DNA of 6,866 nucleotides, taken from IMG/VR virus record IMGVR_UViG_3300000289_000108; one strand, written 5' to 3'. Below the pieces are notes generated by a model. It was given only the letters and a program-made list of their open reading frames with translations, had not been told where the DNA came from and did no database searches. Shown here one piece after another: positions 1 through 6,169 of the stretch. How positions within the stretch are numbered: position 1 is the stretch's first letter; each line of letters begins with the position of its first letter. A program made the position numbers and the translations under genes. Source of the DNA: a virus. Its lineage: Duplodnaviria > Heunggongvirae > Uroviricota > Caudoviricetes.

Positions 1-36
1 CAAAAAGAGGGATAATCTGAAAGAGTTTGAATTTCT

Positions 37-240
37 TCATTGTTTGATTTCCTTGATGTACTTACTGAAAAGGCGAACAACGCCTGCCGGGTACAGCATG
101 GCAATGAAAATGCCCAGCAATACCAGGAAGGAGCTGTCTGATGAAATCATTCGGGGGAGTAGTCCTGCATACAGAATGAGAGAAACGAGGACGCATACCA
201 GCGCCCACATGTATGCGCGAAACCAGGTCTTTTTGTTCAT
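37..240 (-). CDS. small membrane protein, 67 aa, two predicted transmembrane helices
   Basis: ATG at 238-240 with TAAGGGA Shine-Dalgarno about 8 nt upstream; two hydrophobic stretches (WALVCVLVSLILYAGLL and FLVLLGIFIAMLYPAGVV); last gene of the - strand small-gene chain in this window. Confidence 0.5.
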   Translation of the reverse strand: MNKKTWFRAYMWALVCVLVSLILYAGLLPRMISSDSSFLVLLGIFIAMLYPAGVVRLFSKYIKEIKQ

Positions 241-251
241 GCTGCGATCCC

Positions 252-551
252 TTACTGGTTAAGGAAAAAATCAAAAACCTTGTCGATGCGTTGCAGCAGC
301 TCTCGCTGCATTGTTTCCGGTGTTTCCGGTTCGCCAGGTGAACCCAGTGGTGCACAGAAATCAGCGATTTCATGATGGAGCGTCAGGCGAATGGCTGGCG
401 CTGTGGTTCTGGCGTGCTCCAGTTCATCCAGTAGTGCCAACACGGCAGATGGCGAGAGCATTGCGCGAAACGCCAGTAATTTTTGATGCGTTGCCATTCG
501 TTGCAGGTCAGTCGCCAGTTCGCGTAGTTCCTGGTGGTTGATGGTGCTCAT
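252..551 (-). CDS. hypothetical protein, 99 aa, predicted helical
   Basis: ATG 549-551 overlaps the stop of the upstream gene (ATGA at 548-551); AAGGAA Shine-Dalgarno 8 nt upstream; no family recognised. Confidence 0.5.
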   Translation of the reverse strand: MSTINHQELRELATDLQRMATHQKLLAFRAMLSPSAVLALLDELEHARTTAPAIRLTLHHEIADFCAPLGSPGEPETPETMQRELLQRIDKVFDFFLNQ

Positions 552-793
552 GCTCTGGCTTCCTTCAGTAGCTGGTTAAACATGCGGGTGAGTGGGTTGC
601 TGCACCCGAACGGCATCGGGTTTACCTGGTAAGAGAACCGACCGCCTGTTTTGCGTTCTTCTCTGATGACTAAGCCGTCGCGCCAGAGTCGGCGTAACTC
701 CGCATTAATGGTTGTGGTTGGGGTATTCAGTGCTGCGGCGATTTCTCCACCGCTACAACCCGGATTGGCGGCGATGTAGTCCAGAATGGTCAT
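548..793 (-). CDS. small winged-helix DNA-binding protein, 81 aa, PapI/FaeA-like pattern
   Basis: ATG 791-793 overlaps the upstream stop (ATGA at 790-793); GGAG 8 nt upstream; motif ILDYIAANPGCSGGEIAAAL...LRRLWRDGLVIRE resembles small wHTH regulators (recollection, not a search). Confidence 0.5.
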   Translation of the reverse strand: MTILDYIAANPGCSGGEIAAALNTPTTTINAELRRLWRDGLVIREERKTGGRFSYQVNPMPFGCSNPLTRMFNQLLKEARA

Positions 794-993
794 CTGCGTG
801 ACTCCTGTACCTGTCGGATAAGGTTCACCCGCGCCACATTCGTGGCGCAGAAGTAAGTGCCGTCAGTGAGATAGATGTGATGTGCATCTTTTTCTGAACG
901 GTGTTTGTCGATAGTGGTAATCAGGCGTTCGTCGACCTCGTATTCGCGCCCTCTGGAGGTAAAGCGAACGACGGGAAAATGCTTAATTGCCAT
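790..993 (-). CDS. hypothetical protein, 67 aa (MAIKHFPVVRF...)
   Basis: Preferred start ATG 991-993 preceded by AAGAGAG; the ORF track's 1011 start is a TTG extension; stop overlaps the next gene's start. Confidence 0.45.
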   Translation of the reverse strand: MAIKHFPVVRFTSRGREYEVDERLITTIDKHRSEKDAHHIYLTDGTYFCATNVARVNLIRQVQESRR

Positions 994-1016
994 TACGCTC
1001 TCTTTGTCCAATAGCC

Positions 1017-1427
1017 CTATGCGTTAAATACGGCACGTTGCGTGCCATCAATGAATGCGGCCTGAGTGCGTTCTATCAGGCGGAGATTTGTCAGAACTTC
1101 TGACTCTCTTACGGGGTAAGGGGTAATCAGGTATTTGTCCTGCAATTCGGCGATAATGATGTATTGCTGTAGCTCCGAGCCAATAATATGAATAAGGTGT
1201 CCAATGTCAGATAAATTCAGTCTGGTGGTTGGTTGTGTTTTGAGAACCGTTAGTTCAGCATCCTGTTTTTCGATGATTTCGGCTGCTTCGGCGGTTACTC
1301 TTGTTATCATCATGGCCGTGGTGGCAGGCCCAATCATTCCTGCATTTGTTGCATCCTGAATGGCTCTGTTTGCGGTCTCTGATATATTTTTTAGCGCAGT
1401 TACAATGCCTTTTTCTTTTGCGTTCAT
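1017..1427 (-). CDS. hypothetical protein, 136 aa
   Basis: ATG 1425-1427 with GGAGA Shine-Dalgarno 7 nt upstream; clean ORF; preceded by a 93-bp intergenic gap inside the operon; no family recognised. Confidence 0.55.
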   Translation of the reverse strand: MNAKEKGIVTALKNISETANRAIQDATNAGMIGPATTAMMITRVTAEAAEIIEKQDAELTVLKTQPTTRLNLSDIGHLIHIIGSELQQYIIIAELQDKYLITPYPVRESEVLTNLRLIERTQAAFIDGTQRAVFNA

Positions 1428-1520: not shown

Positions 1521-1634
1521 TTATTCGTCAGAGAAAAAACGTTCAATCTTTTTCACTGAATGAATAATTCGCATAATCCCAATGGCGCAGGCCACCGAAA
1601 TAATCAGAACAATCCATGACATAAATATACTCAT
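1521..1634 (-). CDS. small hydrophobic peptide, 37 aa, single predicted TM helix (MSIFMSWIVLIISVACAIGIMRIIHSVKKIERFFSDE); not in the supplied ORF track
   Basis: ATG 1632-1634 overlaps the TGA of the upstream 80-aa gene (ATGA); GGGGAA Shine-Dalgarno 6-8 nt upstream; hydrophobic core followed by a basic C-terminal tail. Confidence 0.35.
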   Translation of the reverse strand: MSIFMSWIVLIISVACAIGIMRIIHSVKKIERFFSDE

Positions 1635-1873
1635 GCGATATTCCCCAGCTTATACGGTTCAATATGTTCTCCGCATTCTGCGGCGCAGACGAGTTCGGAA
1701 AGTTCGTTAAGTGCATCCAGATCATCAGCGTAAAAAGCCACGTCATACAGACTCCGGATTGCCCTGGTCAATGAGTCACGGGCTGCGCGTTCAGCATGAG
1801 CGCCTGATGCACTTAAGCGAAAATAAAAACGCTCAAGTGCTTTGTTAATGATAGTTTTATATTCTTTGCCCAT
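1631..1873 (-). CDS. hypothetical protein, 80 aa, predicted helical
   Basis: ATG 1871-1873 with GGGAAAA upstream; stop overlaps the start of the 37-aa peptide gene. Confidence 0.5.
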   Translation of the reverse strand: MGKEYKTIINKALERFYFRLSASGAHAERAARDSLTRAIRSLYDVAFYADDLDALNELSELVCAAECGEHIEPYKLGNIA

Positions 1874-2175: not shown

Positions 2176-2221
2176 TGTAGGCCGAGGCTATCTCTACCAT
2201 GTTTTTTGTCGTTGTTGCCAT
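2176..2221 (-). CDS. N-terminal fragment of a hypothetical protein (MATTTKNMVEIASAY...), continues into gap 2009-2175; may be the same gene as 1894-2008
   Basis: ATG 2219-2221 lies 3 nt after the stop of the 116-aa gene, with GGGGGA Shine-Dalgarno about 9 nt upstream. Confidence 0.35.
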
Positions 2222-2224
2222 TGG

Positions 2225-2575
2225 TTAATTCCCCCGTGGATGCTGAAAACTACGTCCTGCAATTAAGCGGTCAACCGTGCGTAGCGCTTCGTACAATGTA
2301 AAATCCTGTCCGAACTGATTGTCGCCGTTGCTCAGTGCAAAAATGCGGTTTCCGGTAAACGGATTGCGTGGGCATTTGTGGACCACAATTCCAGCTTTCT
2401 CAATCAGCCAGGTATGCTCGCCGATTTGTTTTACTGGGTAGCCATCCGGCGTTGCGTGTGTTTCGCTCAGGCTGTAGCGAGAGTTGCTACGTGATGCACT
2501 GGTAGCGAAACGGTTAGCGTGGCGTTCCGCACCGTTGCGGAAGCGCGGCTGTGAAGAATTGCGCTGTAGTTTCAT
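2225..2575 (-). CDS. hypothetical protein, 116 aa, basic Ser/Arg-rich N-terminus
   Basis: Clean ORF with ATG 2573-2575 and a weak Shine-Dalgarno; first gene downstream of a 210-bp partly gapped intergenic region; no family recognised. Confidence 0.5.
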   Translation of the reverse strand: MKLQRNSSQPRFRNGAERHANRFATSASRSNSRYSLSETHATPDGYPVKQIGEHTWLIEKAGIVVHKCPRNPFTGNRIFALSNGDNQFGQDFTLYEALRTVDRLIAGRSFQHPRGN

Positions 2576-2785
2576 ATTAAAACTCTGTACCTTCGGTAAG
2601 GTGTACTCGTGTCACCTTGTATTGATTTGTGGTATTTTTTGTGTGTCTAGGACTTGGACTGGCCGGTTCAGGTCCTGGCTTATGTTTAATTAAATTGNNN
2701 NNNNNNNNNNNNNNNNNNNNNNNNNNNNNNNNNNNNNNNNNNNNNNNNNNNNNNNNNNNNNNNNNNNNNNNNNNNNNAGGTTTTC

Positions 2786-2977
2786 ATGTCAGAAGATAAA
2801 AAAGTTGTTAATTTGTTGAGTGACCTTAGTGCTGCTCTGGATAACATTAACCCTCCTAGGGTAAAAACGACGGGTGATAAAGACGCATTAAACGCAGAGA
2901 TTCATATATTACTGGCGTTAGTAACTGACAAAATTCAGCGTAAATACCCACCTGTCACACAACTGGTTGATTTTTAA
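2786..2977 (+). CDS. hypothetical small protein, 63 aa, low GC (about 37%); the only + strand gene inside the - strand operon region
   Basis: ATG 2786 directly after gap 2698-2777; followed by a GC-rich hairpin; convergent with the low-GC - strand gene starting at 3479. Confidence 0.45.
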   Translation: MSEDKKVVNLLSDLSAALDNINPPRVKTTGDKDALNAEIHILLALVTDKIQRKYPPVTQLVDF

Positions 2978-2985
2978 TTTGATTT

Positions 2986-3006
2986 ATGCCGGGCTGCTCC
3001 CGGCAT
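2986..3006. terminator. 8-bp GC-rich stem-loop (ATGCCGGG-ctgct-CCCGGCAT) between convergent genes; possible bidirectional terminator
   Basis: Perfect inverted repeat read directly; lies 9 nt after the stop of the 63-aa gene and 24 nt below the stop at 3030-3032; the flanking U-run is weak. Confidence 0.35.
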
Positions 3007-3270
3007 CTTCTAGCTGCCATAATGTCTCGTCACCTGATAGAGCAAAACGAAATGNNNNNNNNNNNNNNNNNNNNNNNNNNNNNNNNNNNNNNNNNNNNNN
3101 NNNNNNNNNNNNNNNNNNNNNNNNNNNNNNNNNNNNNNNNNNNNNNNNNNNNNNNNNNNNNNNNNNNNNNNNNNNNNNNNNNNNNNNNNNNNNNNNNNNN
3201 NNNNNNNNNNNNNNNNNNNNNNNNNNNNNNNNNNNNNNNNNNNNNNNNNNNNNNNNNNNNNNNNNNNNNN

Positions 3271-3479
3271 TTGACAACAGAATCTTTGTTTTCCAGTACT
3301 GATTTAGCGATTAGATATAGATGCCAGTAACTGGTTACAATTGTTACTCCTGTGATGTGTCGTAAATTAATTGCAATTCGTCCGTTATTATGTTTTTCCG
3401 CAAGGTATTTCAGGTTATCAATTAATGCTTGGTCATTTTTTGAAATAGTTATTGTGAAATCTGACGTGTTTGTTTTCAT
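3271..3479 (-). CDS. N-terminal fragment of a low-GC (about 33%) hypothetical protein (MKTNTSDFTITISKNDQALIDNLKYLAEKHNNGRIAINLRH...), continues into gap 3055-3270; the ISFCSIR-stop at 3030-3054 may be its C-terminus
   Basis: ATG 3477-3479; 69 visible codons without a stop; strong compositional shift from neighbours; the beta-strand plus helix pattern at the N-terminus loosely resembles ribbon-helix-helix proteins (inference only). Confidence 0.45.
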
Positions 3480-3588
3480 ACGATTNNNNNNNNNNNNNNN
3501 NNNNNNNNNNNNNNNNNNNNNNNNNNNNNNNNNNNNNNNNNNNNNNNNNNNNNNNNNNNNNNNNNNNNNNNNNNNNNNNNNNNNNNNN

Positions 3589-4123
3589 AGTTTTGAGCTT
3601 CTGCCTGTATAAACTCGCTTACCGTTAATGGTCTGGCAGTCTTCTTTATTAGCTGGAGAGAACTTCCTTTTCTGGCGGTCATACGTCCAGTAACTTTTCC
3701 AGTTGTGCCATTCTGGGGGCTCGTGCTCTGGTAGCTCATCAGCCAACTTGTCCCACTCTTTGGCGTTAAACCACCATACTCCGTCTGAGTTTTCATCTTC
3801 CGGGTTTGTGCGCGTCTNNNNNNNNNNNNNNNNNNNNNNNNNNNNNNNNNNNNNNNNNNNNNNNNNNNNNNNNNNNNNNNNNNNNNNNNNNNNNNNNNNN
3901 NNNNNNNNGAATGGCTACGCGCAGTGCAGATTTTGTTAGCCCAATATATGCCGCGCCTTTTTCCAGAGAGCAAAGCCCGGCGATCGGACCATCCAGCCGT
4001 AAAGTCGCTCCTTTTTTGTAGGAACGCTTTTTCTTGTTTTCTTCGTGTTCGTCGTCGTTGGCGGCATCAATGGATCCGCTGAGTGTGTCACTTTCCTGAA
4101 GTGGTTGGTGGTCAGATAACTCT
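3589..4123 (-). CDS. AlpA/Cox-like excisionase-family winged-HTH protein, seen as two fragments (3909-4123 and 3589-3817) split by gap 3818-3908; both ends lie in gaps
   Basis: HTH-like GAAYIGLTKSALRVAI, then across the gap a Trp-rich wing-like motif DGVWWFNAKEWDKL as in AlpA/TorI/Cox-type excisionases; first gene divergent from the repressor, as cox is in P2. Frame across the gap cannot be verified. Confidence 0.45.
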
Positions 4124-4260
4124 NNNNNNNNNNNNNNNNNNNNNNNNNNNNNNNNNNNNNNNNNNNNNNNNNNNNNNNNNNNNNNNNNNNNNNNNNNNNN
4201 NNNNNNNNNNNNNNNNNNNNNNNNNNNNNNNNNNNNNNNNNNNNNTGTTGCGCCTTGTGA

Positions 4261-4300
4261 TGGTTTGTTTTGGTTTGTTTTCTTCACCATGTGGTGAAGA
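4261..4300. promoter_or_regulatory. candidate operator region of the lysis/lysogeny switch: tandem decamer TGGTTTGTTT x2 (4261-4280) followed by an inverted repeat TCTTCACCA-tg-TGGTGAAGA (4281-4300)
   Basis: Both repeats are perfect and lie 23-62 bp upstream of the repressor ATG. P2-type repressors are recalled to bind direct repeats, but which protein binds which element here is not determinable. Confidence 0.3.
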
Positions 4301-4322
4301 GTGAAAAGAGGATACTCATCGT

Positions 4323-4664
4323 ATGGTGAACATGTCAAGAGATTACGCCAAAAAACTAAAGGCGATCAGAAATGCAGAAAAACTTACACAATCTCAGTTT
4401 TCGCAAGTAACGGGGGTTTCTGTAGGGACTATAGGGAATTATGAGTCTGGATATAAACCTGCGCGAATTGAGGTTGTAGAAAAAGTAATCCAAGTCGAGC
4501 GATTCGAAAAATACACTATGTGGATACTTCACGACAAAACATTTCCCGCTGCCGGGCAGGTTGCCCCGGCTCTCTCTCTTGATGGCTCTATTCAGTCGGA
4601 GGGCGATCAGGTTTCAATCGGTATTACCCAAAAATCACCCCGATCAGGCCGCAATGTTGGCTGA
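4323..4664 (+). CDS. phage P2 C-type immunity repressor, 113 aa
   Basis: AAGAGGA Shine-Dalgarno 10 nt upstream of ATG 4323; HTH region KLTQSQFSQVTGVSVGTIGNYESG and motif FEKYTMWILHDK...GQVAPALS match recollected P2 C (YESG, FTKYTLWF, GQIAPALA); immediately upstream of and co-oriented with int. Confidence 0.8.
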   Translation: MVNMSRDYAKKLKAIRNAEKLTQSQFSQVTGVSVGTIGNYESGYKPARIEVVEKVIQVERFEKYTMWILHDKTFPAAGQVAPALSLDGSIQSEGDQVSIGITQKSPRSGRNVG

Positions 4665-4733
4665 CTCTACACATTGAGCGAATTACATATCGCAAGGAGT
4701 GTTTAGTTAATTTATCCGTTGGAGGGGCTAATC

Positions 4734-5801
4734 ATGTCGATTAAGCAACTCAAAGACGGACGTTATCAGGTCGATGTCAGACCGCAGGGGGCGGAAGGAA
4801 AGCGGATTCGAAAAATCTTTGCCCTGAAATCAAAGGCTCAGGAGTTTGAGAAGTATGTGTTACAGAACTTTCATGACAAGCCATGGCAGGCTAAGCCAGC
4901 TGATCAGCGGCGATTATCAGAGCTGCTTGATGCGTGGTGGATGCTTGATGGGCGTAATCAGGCTTACGGGGATAGCTACAGGGTTAGGCTAGGGAAGGTT
5001 GTTCGTGAAATGGGAGATCCTCGCGCCAGTCAGATGACGCGAAAATTTATGCTTGAATATCGGTCAGAGAAATTACAGGCCGGATTAATGCCGTCCAGTA
5101 TTAATCGTGACTTATGCGTACTGTCTACCATGTTCACGGTGCTGATTGAAGCTGAGGTCTTTCACAACGCGAACCCTGTACGCGGTATACGAAAACTGAA
5201 AGTTCAGAACACAGAGATGGCCTTTCTTTCTGATGATGAGATTGAACGGCTTCTTGAGCGACTGGAGGGTGATGCGCGTCGTGTTGCCATTCTGTGTCTT
5301 TCTACTGGTGCCCGATGGAGTGAAGCATCGGAACTACGTGGAGAGCATATCGTTGGCAACCGGGTGACGTTCTTTAACACCAAAAACGGAAAATCCCGTT
5401 CGGTTCCTGTGGCGGATTCGGTCGTGCCTCTGATTAAAACCCGTCGAACGGGGTTATTGTATCAGGTTGATTATCTGAAGTTCCGGGAGATTCTTCAGGA
5501 GGTGAAACCNNNNNNNNNNNNNNNNNNNNNNNNNNNNNNNNNNNNNNNNNNNNNNNNNNNNNNNNNNNNNNNNNNNNNNNNNNNNNNNNNNNNNNNNNNN
5601 NNNNNNACGCATGTCATGCGTCATACATTTGCCACACACTTTATGATGAATGGCGGAAATATTGTTACGTTGCAACGAATCCTGGGGCACGCAACGATTC
5701 AGCAAACAATGACGTACGCTCATTTTTCGCCGGACTTCTTACAGGACGCGATCAACTTTAATCCGCTGGCTGAAAGTGTCCATAAACTGTCCATCGATTA
5801 G
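4734..5801 (+). CDS. int: P2-family tyrosine integrase, about 355 aa with an internal gap at 5510-5606
   Basis: GGAGGGG Shine-Dalgarno 6 nt upstream of ATG 4734 (the track's 4719 start is a TTG extension); MSIKQLKDGRYQVDVRP, PSSINRDL, AILCLSTGARW, HVMRHTFATHFMMNGG, TLQRILGH and QTMTYAHF match recollected P2 Int, including the catalytic R, HxxR, H and Y motifs. Confidence 0.9.
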   Translation: MSIKQLKDGRYQVDVRPQGAEGKRIRKIFALKSKAQEFEKYVLQNFHDKPWQAKPADQRRLSELLDAWWMLDGRNQAYGDSYRVRLGKVVREMGDPRASQMTRKFMLEYRSEKLQAGLMPSSINRDLCVLSTMFTVLIEAEVFHNANPVRGIRKLKVQNTEMAFLSDDEIERLLERLEGDARRVAILCLSTGARWSEASELRGEHIVGNRVTFFNTKNGKSRSVPVADSVVPLIKTRRTGLLYQVDYLKFREILQEVKXXXXXXXXXXXXXXXXXXXXXXXXXXXXXXXXXTHVMRHTFATHFMMNGGNIVTLQRILGHATIQQTMTYAHFSPDFLQDAINFNPLAESVHKLSID

Positions 5802-5822
5802 TTATAATTTGTGTTAATTTGT

Positions 5823-5873
5823 TCCCCCTGTTTTGGCTTATTCGTTGAAAAATAAGTAAATCATCAGGGGGAG
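5823..5873. repeat. nested inverted repeats (TCCCCCTG...CAGGGGGA enclosing CTTATT...AATAAG) just downstream of int; candidate attachment-site/core region
   Basis: Arms read directly from sequence; the enclosed GAAAAATAAG resembles the start of the P2 attP core as recalled (AAAAAATAAG...); position is as expected for a P2-type att site. Confidence 0.3.
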
Positions 5874-5884
5874 CAAGAAACGTT

Positions 5885-5908
5885 AAAGCGCCTGCGGGCG
5901 CTTTTTTT
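5885..5908 (+). terminator. rho-independent terminator (GCGCC-tgcg-GGCGC followed by a 7-T run)
   Basis: Perfect 5-bp GC stem extended by A-U pairs plus a U-tract, downstream of int or at the upstream host gene's 3' end. Confidence 0.7.
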
Positions 5909-5916
5909 GTCTCCCT

Positions 5917-5930
5917 TTGATACCGAACAA
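5917..5930 (+). promoter_or_regulatory. candidate FNR box of the dmsA promoter (TTGAT-accg-AACAA)
   Basis: 9 of 10 matches to the FNR consensus TTGATnnnnATCAA, about 240 bp upstream of the dmsA ATG; dmsABC is a known FNR-activated anaerobic operon. Confidence 0.45.
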
Positions 5931-6169
5931 TAATTACTCCTCACTTACACGTAATACTACTTTCGAGTGAAAATCTACCTATCTCTTTGATTTTCAAATT
6001 ATTCGATGTATACAAGCCTATATAGCGAGCTGCTATANNNNNNNNNNNNNNNNNNNNNNNNNNNNNNNNNNNNNNNNNNNNNNNNNNNNNNNNNNNNNNN
6101 NNNNNNNNNNNNNNNNNNNNNNNNNNNNTGTTACTGGAATCAATCGTGAGCAAGCTTGAGTGAGCCATT

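Follow-up and report, generated by a model that had tools for sequence, protein, structure and literature searches.

A mosaic block of small, overlapping genes in the early region of a predicted P88-like prophage

In the phages P2 and 186, early accessory genes lie between the cox/apl switch gene and the replication gene A, namely orf78-orf83 in P2 and, between apl/cII and A, fil, dhr and the CP open reading frames (ORFs) in 186. These small genes are tightly packed, form part of the early transcript and are for the most part non-essential. Gene pairs of a different kind, in which an NfeD gene and an SPFH gene share an operon, are known as YqiJ-YqiK, QmcA-YbbJ and PH1510-PH1511. The present analysis concerns a block of small genes at positions 37-1427, with their neighbours on either side, in a 6,866-nucleotide stretch of Caudoviricetes DNA (IMG/VR record IMGVR_UViG_3300000289_000108), the whole of which is called the window here. 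The block encodes a core trio, among them a winged helix-turn-helix (wHTH) protein, and a two-transmembrane (2-TM) protein whose gene overlaps that of an SPFH lipoprotein. The nearest analogues of the core trio are two non-essential genes of phage lambda, ren and ea22. Lambda Ea22 has been reported as favouring lysogeny (PMC7093339) and its middle domain is a coiled coil (PMC10834534), while a paper on an N4-like phage (2026) notes that why a phage genome should encode an SPFH protein 'remains unclear' (PMC13239085).

Judged from its sequence, the window represents the left arm of a P88-like prophage (Xuanwuvirus, Peduoviridae, P2 family). On balance, we consider it probable that the block is an ordinary accessory part of a P88-like early (lytic) operon, placed between a cox-type switch gene and the replication gene A and put together from separately inherited pieces. 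The genes of the block and its immediate neighbours are the following.

1..40, minus strand: start of an SPFH/Band_7 lipoprotein gene; 13 codons (MKKFKLFQIIPLF) at 40-2, with base 1 opening the 14th codon, after which the gene runs off the window
37..240, minus strand: 67-aa two-transmembrane inner-membrane protein, phrog_1130 (E=1e-22); first gene of the membrane cassette
252..551, minus strand: 99-aa acidic two-module protein, phrog_4144; Pfam Ead_Ea22 below cut-off
548..793, minus strand: 81-aa winged-helix protein, phrog_1687; Pfam MarR_2 and HTH_24
790..993, minus strand: 67-aa basic (pI 9.4) all-beta (beta-barrel) protein, phrog_3459; the most conserved member of the block
1017..1427, minus strand: 136-aa protein, phrog_9338; optional slot; ratio of non-synonymous to synonymous substitution rates (dN/dS) about 0.45
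1521..1634, minus strand: 37-aa single-span hydrophobic peptide (hydrophobic at 1-28), annotated in P88 as 'membrane protein'; dN/dS 0.09-0.31
1631..1873, minus strand: 80-aa DUF4754 protein (Pfam DUF4754, E=8e-54), an early gene upstream of the block; dN/dS 0.04-0.22

The composition of the block was compared in 80 IMG/VR loci anchored on the 67-aa basic protein, onto which all block proteins were mapped by tblastn; genes were scored as present or absent in 78 loci, those complete over the whole span from DUF4754 through the replicase. The 67-aa protein (median identity 99%), the 37-aa peptide and the DUF4754 protein are found in 78/78 of these related loci. The wHTH protein is present in 76/78, at 64-100% identity and with alleles of 79, 81 and 88 aa, and the 99-aa Ea22-like protein in 67/78, seven more loci having a variant N-terminus and keeping the C-terminal module alone. 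The 136-aa gene occurs in 43 of the 78 loci, its alleles falling to 34% identity. The 2-TM gene and the SPFH gene are each confined to 16 loci and accompany one another in 16/16, their slot being otherwise empty or occupied by a different gene (Shae_phiSM). The block is a mosaic of a core trio (67-aa, wHTH and Ea22-like proteins), an optional 136-aa gene and an optional 2-TM/SPFH cassette. These pieces are inherited separately in the 78 loci, and the chain is not one functional unit; the idea of a single functional chain of four genes is not supported, as the 2-TM gene is inherited with the SPFH gene and not with the wHTH trio. The 136-aa gene, which lies inside the range covered by that prediction and was left undescribed in it, is absent from P88 itself, was found in only four phage records, and has a GC content of 0.39-0.47 over its region, against 0.53-0.57 in the downstream genes.

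When the five proteins of 67, 81, 99, 136 and 67 aa (the last being the 2-TM protein) were compared by tblastn with 50,697 phage records, matches were obtained in Xuanwuvirus, lambdoid, P1-like and N4-like phages, and none in P2 or 186 records at E<=1e-3. The products therefore do not correspond to well-characterised, invariant early proteins of P2, the outcome that would have spoken against the original prediction: homology to P2/186 is lacking and gene content varies much between phages. The view that all products other than the wHTH protein are unrecognisable was too strong, as each product is assigned to an existing PHROG family and the N-terminus of the 99-aa protein is recognisable as Ead/Ea22-like. 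An apparent Rosetta-stone link between the 67-aa and wHTH proteins through phrog_19053 (246 aa, matching both) was rejected: the longer proteins in question (P0067, P0071, P0075, P0105, P0087) are read-through, frameshift or deletion products and not natural fusions. For six genes dN/dS ranges from 0.02 to 0.31, and for the 136-aa gene it is about 0.45; all values are below 0.5, as under purifying selection, and it follows that all seven are real genes.

Every gene of the block lies on the minus strand, where a plus-strand TCAT reads as ATGA. At 548-551 this tetranucleotide joins the stop of the 81-aa gene to the start of the 99-aa gene, at 790-793 the stop of the 67-aa gene to the start of the 81-aa gene, and at 1631-1634 the stop of the DUF4754 80-aa gene to the start of the 37-aa gene; the spacer between the 99-aa gene (252-551) and the 2-TM gene (37-240) is exactly 11 nt (241-251). 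Direct reading of the sequence thus bears out the three overlaps and the spacer that had been proposed, and the proposed lengths of 67, 81, 99 and 67 aa hold for the products when the first gene is taken from ATG 993, a start supported by PHROG and by the P88 annotation (the mechanical ORF, from TTG 1011, is 73 aa long). A fourth ATGA had been missed, at 37-40, where the TGA of the 2-TM gene overlaps the ATG of the SPFH lipoprotein gene. The three junctions are not consecutive, as had been stated, for the 136-aa gene (1017-1427) and two non-overlapping junctions, a 93-nt spacer before it and a 23-nt spacer after it, stand between 1631-1634 and 790-793. A Shine-Dalgarno-like motif is found 7-13 nt upstream of every start in the block, and minus-strand terminator-like sites are absent from its intergenic gaps. 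Given the ATGA overlaps, these motifs and the lack of terminators between genes, tight translational coupling is a reasonable proposal; we infer it as a normal property of a phage operon.

The same junctions bear on a simpler explanation, which we regard as rather unlikely, namely that the overlaps reflect mere small-genome compaction and that the genes are unrelated passengers for which stoichiometric co-expression is unneeded. In phage P88, 4-nt (-4) overlaps occur at 10/42 co-directional junctions, those of lysis and baseplate genes included, and the units of the block recombine freely between phages. Junction geometry also varies: the Ea22-like/2-TM distance is +11 in 11 loci and -4 in one, and the 2-TM/SPFH distance is -4 in 12 loci and -10 in five, so that the exact geometry is not fixed. 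Against compaction alone, 5/6 junctions of the P88 block are -4 overlaps compared with 5/36 elsewhere (Fisher p = 0.0016), the wHTH gene, where present (85 loci), is joined to the 67-aa gene before it by a -4 overlap, and the pair formed by the 2-TM and SPFH genes, unbroken in 16/16 loci, is also kept across phage families. The -4 junctions are retained in related loci (DUF4754/37-aa 85/85, 67/81 85/85, 81/99 75/75). The overlaps are real and locally enriched, yet they are a general habit of the P88 genome.

Downstream of the block, a conserved intergenic region of ~320-370 nt separates it from a 'derepression' gene in related loci (5839-6209 in L003, the locus of E. coli WS1933D; 4903-5091 in L001). 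The region in L003 carries a terminator-like hairpin with a T-run at 6041-6026 (minus strand) and a promoter-like site at 6131-6102, and for this reason the transcription unit of the block may end there. A search for a LexA box in this region found none, and the reverse-strand 'gp13' ORF annotated there in P88 is probably not a gene.

The 81-aa protein is the member of the block for which most can be said. It scores above the Pfam cut-offs for MarR_2 (35.0 bits, cut-off 27) and HTH_24 (32.6 bits, cut-off 21.9), which cover residues 2-52 alone, and below the cut-off for PF01047 MarR (20.5 bits, cut-off 24.6). The AlphaFold2 model (predicted local distance difference test, pLDDT, 83) contains three helices, a beta wing and a C-terminal helix at 67-80, and its best Foldseek matches in the PDB are MepR, SlyA, FabT, CzrA and SmtB (E about 5e-4), with TM-scores of 0.56-0.67 when normalised to the query and about 0.36-0.41 when normalised to the MarR targets. 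As modelled, it is a minimal MarR/ArsR-like winged helix. An exhaustive HMMER search returned 569 relatives at E<=1e-3, the full-length ones being single (80-107 aa) or tandem (150-160 aa) winged helices. The family is defined by a motif at the C-terminus, PFGCSNPLTRMFNQLLKEAR (residues 61-80), which is covered by no Pfam model; in the form (P)FGCxNxLTxMFNxxLxxxR it ends nearly all aligned relatives. In the family alignment G63 and R80 are invariant and F62, N66, F72, N73 and L76 are at least 90% conserved, while the winged-helix part proper has no invariant column.

The original prediction had likened this protein to small regulators of the PapI/FaeA type, and the likeness stands in its winged-helix fold, its PapI-like size and a profile comparison in which the family profile aligned with PapI at an hhalign probability of 94% (E=1.6e-7, 28% identity over 53 columns). 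The PapI sequence used was validated as a FaeA-family member (FaeA hidden Markov model, 110 bits, E=6.5e-32). What does not stand is membership of that family: Pfam FaeA (PF04703) gave no match even at E<=10, the nearest structures are of MarR and ArsR type with PapI outside the top 50 structural matches from Foldseek, the protein has a motif of its own, and its setting is a prophage. The resemblance is a likeness at the level of the wHTH clan, and assignment to FaeA fails on these profile comparisons.

Relatives of the wHTH protein are found in other early settings, in Klebsiella phage RothD directly after and overlapping the replication gene P, which is the position of ren, in Serratia phage Eta after bet, and in the pL arm of Stx phages. 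Compared with the family by hhalign, lambda Ren aligned at 94% with the extra N-terminal winged helix of the tandem members. The 99-aa protein provides a second connection with lambdoid phages. Its N-terminal ~50 aa form a coiled-coil module common to Ead/Ea22-like proteins of lambdoid and Stx phages, with 45-58% identity over residues 1-45/76 to such proteins of Stx, mEp043 and Ss-VASD phages and a BLASTP match at E=7e-15 to a 217-aa Stx-phage protein; the C-terminal module of ~40 aa recurs in the 'Chuche72' allele and in Serratia phages. In Stx phages, the Ea22-like protein is encoded two genes from the wHTH homologue, with one gene between, and this proximity suggests that an Ea22-like module has been exchanged between lambdoid and P2-like phages. 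Two extensions of this neighbourhood were rejected. The wHTH and Ea22-like genes are not a universal pair, as the 'Ead/Ea22-like' neighbour in RothD has neither a Pfam match nor BLAST similarity to the 99-aa protein, and the Stx-phage case alone holds; the gene upstream of the Stx-phage wHTH gene, considered as a relative of the 67-aa protein, has no similarity to it.

It can be asked whether the core trio acts in replication itself, as accessory factors for the rolling-circle replicase A, like P2 B or lambda Ren, and not as developmental regulators. In every locus the replication endonuclease gene is found downstream of the trio, the RothD homologue occupies the ren position, and the dN/dS of the 67-aa protein (0.02-0.06) indicates very strong purifying selection. 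The description of lambda ren as 'likely involved in DNA replication' (preprint 10.1101/2021.04.19.439022) counts in the same direction. We nevertheless hold a replication function of this kind to be unlikely: tblastn against the phage records detected nothing similar to P2 B or to the other early proteins of P2/186, A is kept in 2/78 loci without the wHTH gene and in five without the Ea22-like gene, and other wHTH homologues stand beside recombination genes or in the pL arm.

We therefore return to the reading of the block as an accessory part of the early operon, for which the following mechanism is proposed. After infection or derepression, the block would be read leftwards within one early mRNA. 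Ribosomes ending one small ORF could re-initiate at the overlapping AUG (AUGA), helped by a Shine-Dalgarno motif inside the upstream gene, and by this route neighbouring products would be made together and in similar amounts. The wHTH protein would serve as a small DNA-binding accessory regulator, with helix 26-38 and the wing placed at the DNA, and its invariant C-terminal helix may act in dimerisation, as alpha5 does in ArsR/SmtB, or in docking onto a conserved partner. The core trio would tune early development, through replication or the choice between lysis and lysogeny, and its members are probably early accessory regulators of the Ren/Ea22 kind. Of all this, the sequence data show directly the order of the genes, their overlaps, their family assignments, their mosaic inheritance and the purifying selection on them; co-transcription, coupling, DNA binding, membrane topology and the biological roles are deductions.

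The membrane cassette requires separate consideration. Two hydrophobic spans, at about 8-28 and 38-56, with basic ends agree with the two-TM character that had been proposed for the final product, and an N-in/C-in topology is predicted from the sequence. The SPFH gene is complete in L003, where it encodes 276 aa at 6210-7040 (Pfam Band_7 E=1.8e-30) with the lipobox LLVGC followed by Asp; its best NCBIfam matches, HflC and HflK, are weak. An Asp after the lipobox Cys is an inner-membrane retention signal in Lol sorting. The 2-TM protein would thus reside in the inner membrane, with the SPFH lipoprotein tethered to its periplasmic face (Asp at +2), and by analogy with NfeD-stomatin or HflK/C pairs the lipoprotein is likely to form an SPFH assembly. 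The cassette is spread over Peduoviridae, Punavirus and Schitoviridae, and in the three phages listed below, which are P1-like, Klebsiella N4-like and from Erwinia, the 2-TM gene lies directly upstream of the SPFH gene and overlaps it.

P1-like phage Ro157c2YLVW: SPFH protein 93% identity, 2-TM partner 48%
N4-like Klebsiella phage Pylas: SPFH protein 72.5% identity, 2-TM partner 43%
Erwinia phage Fifi011: SPFH protein 68% identity, 2-TM partner 38%

Because virulent N4-like phages carry it too, the cassette is probably a factor of lytic growth that acts at the inner membrane. In some P1-like phages it is situated between tRNA genes of the ban operon (L096 1777-2821, compared with L098 14473-15930), where reference P1 holds upl/plp and tciABC; this site is a cargo slot common to unrelated cassettes. 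The idea that the cassette is P1 upl/plp itself was discarded, as P1 plp encodes 125 aa on the opposite strand and gives no match, and the cassette is confined to P1-like variants.

A further alternative, implied by the phage challenge suggested with the original prediction, is that the block or part of it is a prophage-borne anti-phage defence, superinfection-exclusion or toxin-antitoxin module which benefits the lysogen. The 136-aa and 2-TM/SPFH slots are variable, with alternative cargo in Shae_phiSM, in the pattern of a moron or defence hotspot; phrog_1130 is placed in the category 'moron, auxiliary metabolic gene and host takeover'; and the cassette of P1-like phages takes the slot of tciABC and upl/plp. 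We judge this alternative to be distinctly improbable. A search of ten proteins against PADLOC-DB 2.0 gave no significant match and no convincing family, the best hits being generic wHTH matches at E>=1.6e-4. There is no promoter room before the cassette (an 11-nt spacer or an overlap), and it would therefore be repressed along with the early operon in the lysogen. Its presence in strictly virulent N4-like phages points to lytic infection, and the trio is genus core and not variable.

Several observations weigh against our preferred reading, in which the block is an accessory part of the early operon with Ren/Ea22-like core genes and an NfeD/SPFH-like cassette. The early promoter between the C repressor and cox was not picked up by a simple sigma-70 consensus scan, and its existence is assumed by analogy with the way P2-family phages are organised. 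The conservation of the junctions carries little independent weight because the related loci are close relatives. Lambda Ren matches the window-type wHTH protein weakly (hhalign 55%; phrog_142 E=0.042), and the Pfam Ead_Ea22 profile (PF13935) scores 23.1 bits on the 99-aa protein, below its cut-off of 27, over profile positions 55-81/139 in the coiled coil only. NfeD (PF01957) gave no match on the 2-TM protein, for which RseC_MucC and DUF2207_C were the only, sub-threshold, hits. In the literature on the block, on Xuanwuvirus early genes and on SPFH proteins with prophages or N4-like phages, no functional study was found.

A more far-reaching proposal, which we offer as speculative and doubtful, joins a portable 2-TM/SPFH membrane module for lytic growth with a host-protein docking peptide, the C-terminal FGCxNxLTxMFN helix of the wHTH protein. 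The SPFH assembly could exclude superinfecting phages, control proteolysis of the FtsH/HflKC type or set the timing of lysis, and a portable module would explain 68-93% conservation across P2-like, P1-like and virulent N4-like phages. The wHTH family might then form a new class of phage co-regulators, acting as PapI does with Lrp.

In the wider setting of the block, two genes stand on the opposite strand.

4323-4664, plus strand: C-type repressor
4719-5801, plus strand: integrase

Beyond the C repressor lies a Cox-family gene, from which the early operon runs leftwards. Over positions 1-2000 the window shares 87-92% identity with Xuanwuvirus phages and 97.6% with E. coli WS1933D, and similar DNA is matched in 1369/5426 complete E. 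coli genomes. In P88, Shae_phiSM and WS1933D alike, the block stands after int, the C repressor and a Cox-family gene and before the replication endonuclease; in WS1933D the genes next in line encode the 276-aa SPFH/Band_7 lipoprotein, then a 'derepression'-family protein, a protein of 121 aa and finally the replication endonuclease. A scan of GTDB genomes with the wHTH protein yielded four loci, among which only that of E. albertii was useful for confirming the block. Records labelled 'Vagococcus sp.' (L005, NZ_JBQPOM010000071.1) and 'Enterococcus faecalis' (protein P0018) hold an E. coli-type prophage block from DUF4761 through the replicase, and contamination or mislabelling of the source assemblies most likely accounts for these Gram-positive labels.

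On the integrase side, the Rfam small RNA STnc130 is matched in full length at 5876-6010 of the window (minus strand, 136 bits), 75 nt past the integrase stop, and the prophage adjoins dmsA in the 97.6%-identical strain WS1933D; this DNA is accordingly host flank, and the attachment site falls within about 5802-5875. The window contains no tRNA. Runs of N mask several stretches between ~1999 and 6700, and the best E. coli record covers positions 2176-4700 (2525 nt) in six pieces with only 2163 nt, so that the masked stretches may not keep their true lengths, or 2176-4700 may contain extra DNA. Between the Cox-family gene and DUF4761 (2576-3792, minus strand) the gene content is unlike that of P88, Shae_phiSM and WS1933D, one example being a partly masked 238-aa ORF at 3030-3746, and this interval has the look of a further variable slot in the early operon. 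The region past the replication endonuclease is a further variable region of these prophages: in the place where P88 carries parM and a partition gene, WS1933D has three plus-strand hypothetical genes (L003 1-2370).

In itself the block contributes little: it is an accessory segment of the usual sort, from a very common E. coli prophage, and its genes are already deposited and annotated (hypothetical, MarR-family, Ead/Ea22-like, SPFH) in many complete genomes. It is of value because it draws attention to two uncharacterised and clearly selected families of phage proteins, namely a Ren/PapI-like mini winged helix, in which a C-terminal motif of 20 residues is the sole part with invariant residues, and a 2-TM/SPFH-lipoprotein pair that moves between unrelated temperate and virulent enterobacterial phages. 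Solving either family would fill a gap on how phages act upon the host in early infection, and solving the pair would answer why phages carry SPFH proteins.

Set beside the systems with which it has most in common, the block has the position of the P2/186 early accessory genes, with the cox/apl switch gene on one side and the replication gene A on the other, and differs from them in having no sequence homology to them. Like PapI and FaeA, which are co-regulators of fimbrial phase variation that work with Lrp at GATC sites, the wHTH protein is a stand-alone winged helix of ~80 aa, and its N-terminal helix pattern matches closely (compared string TILDYIAANPGCSGGEIAAAL); PapI, however, is without the conserved C-terminal motif, and the wHTH gene of the window stands in a prophage early operon between cox and A and not beside a pap/fae fimbrial switch. 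MarR and ArsR/SmtB proteins are its best sequence-family and structural matches, and the C-terminal helix is placed in the model as is the alpha5 dimerisation helix of ArsR. Unlike MarR proteins of 140-150 aa, the 81-aa protein does not possess N- and C-terminal dimerisation helices, and neither a ligand pocket nor a metal site of these families is evident in it. Lambda Ren, compared here together with the exo-xis/nin accessory genes (Ea22, orf60a-63, Ea8.5), is likewise a small delayed-early accessory protein, a wHTH of ~96 aa whose gene overlaps the end of P, but it has no clear copy of the FGCxNxLTxMFN motif, and the wHTH gene here lies upstream of A in a P2-like operon, the ren position being occupied only by the distant RothD homologue. 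With lambda Ea22, the 99-aa protein has in common the N-terminal module of Ead/Ea22-like proteins; to judge from its length, without a direct comparison, it appears to be devoid of the Ea22 C-terminal domain, and the host phage is P2-like, whereas ren and ea22 belong to lambdoid phages. The cassette resembles the NfeD-SPFH pairs in that an SPFH/Band_7 gene is linked in translation to the gene of a membrane protein, and HflK/HflC in that its SPFH domain is predicted to lie at the inner membrane on the periplasmic side. It departs from the NfeD-SPFH pairs in its partner, a bare 67-aa 2-TM protein, and from both groups in that its SPFH protein is predicted to be anchored by lipid and not by a transmembrane segment, and in that the pair is borne by phages.

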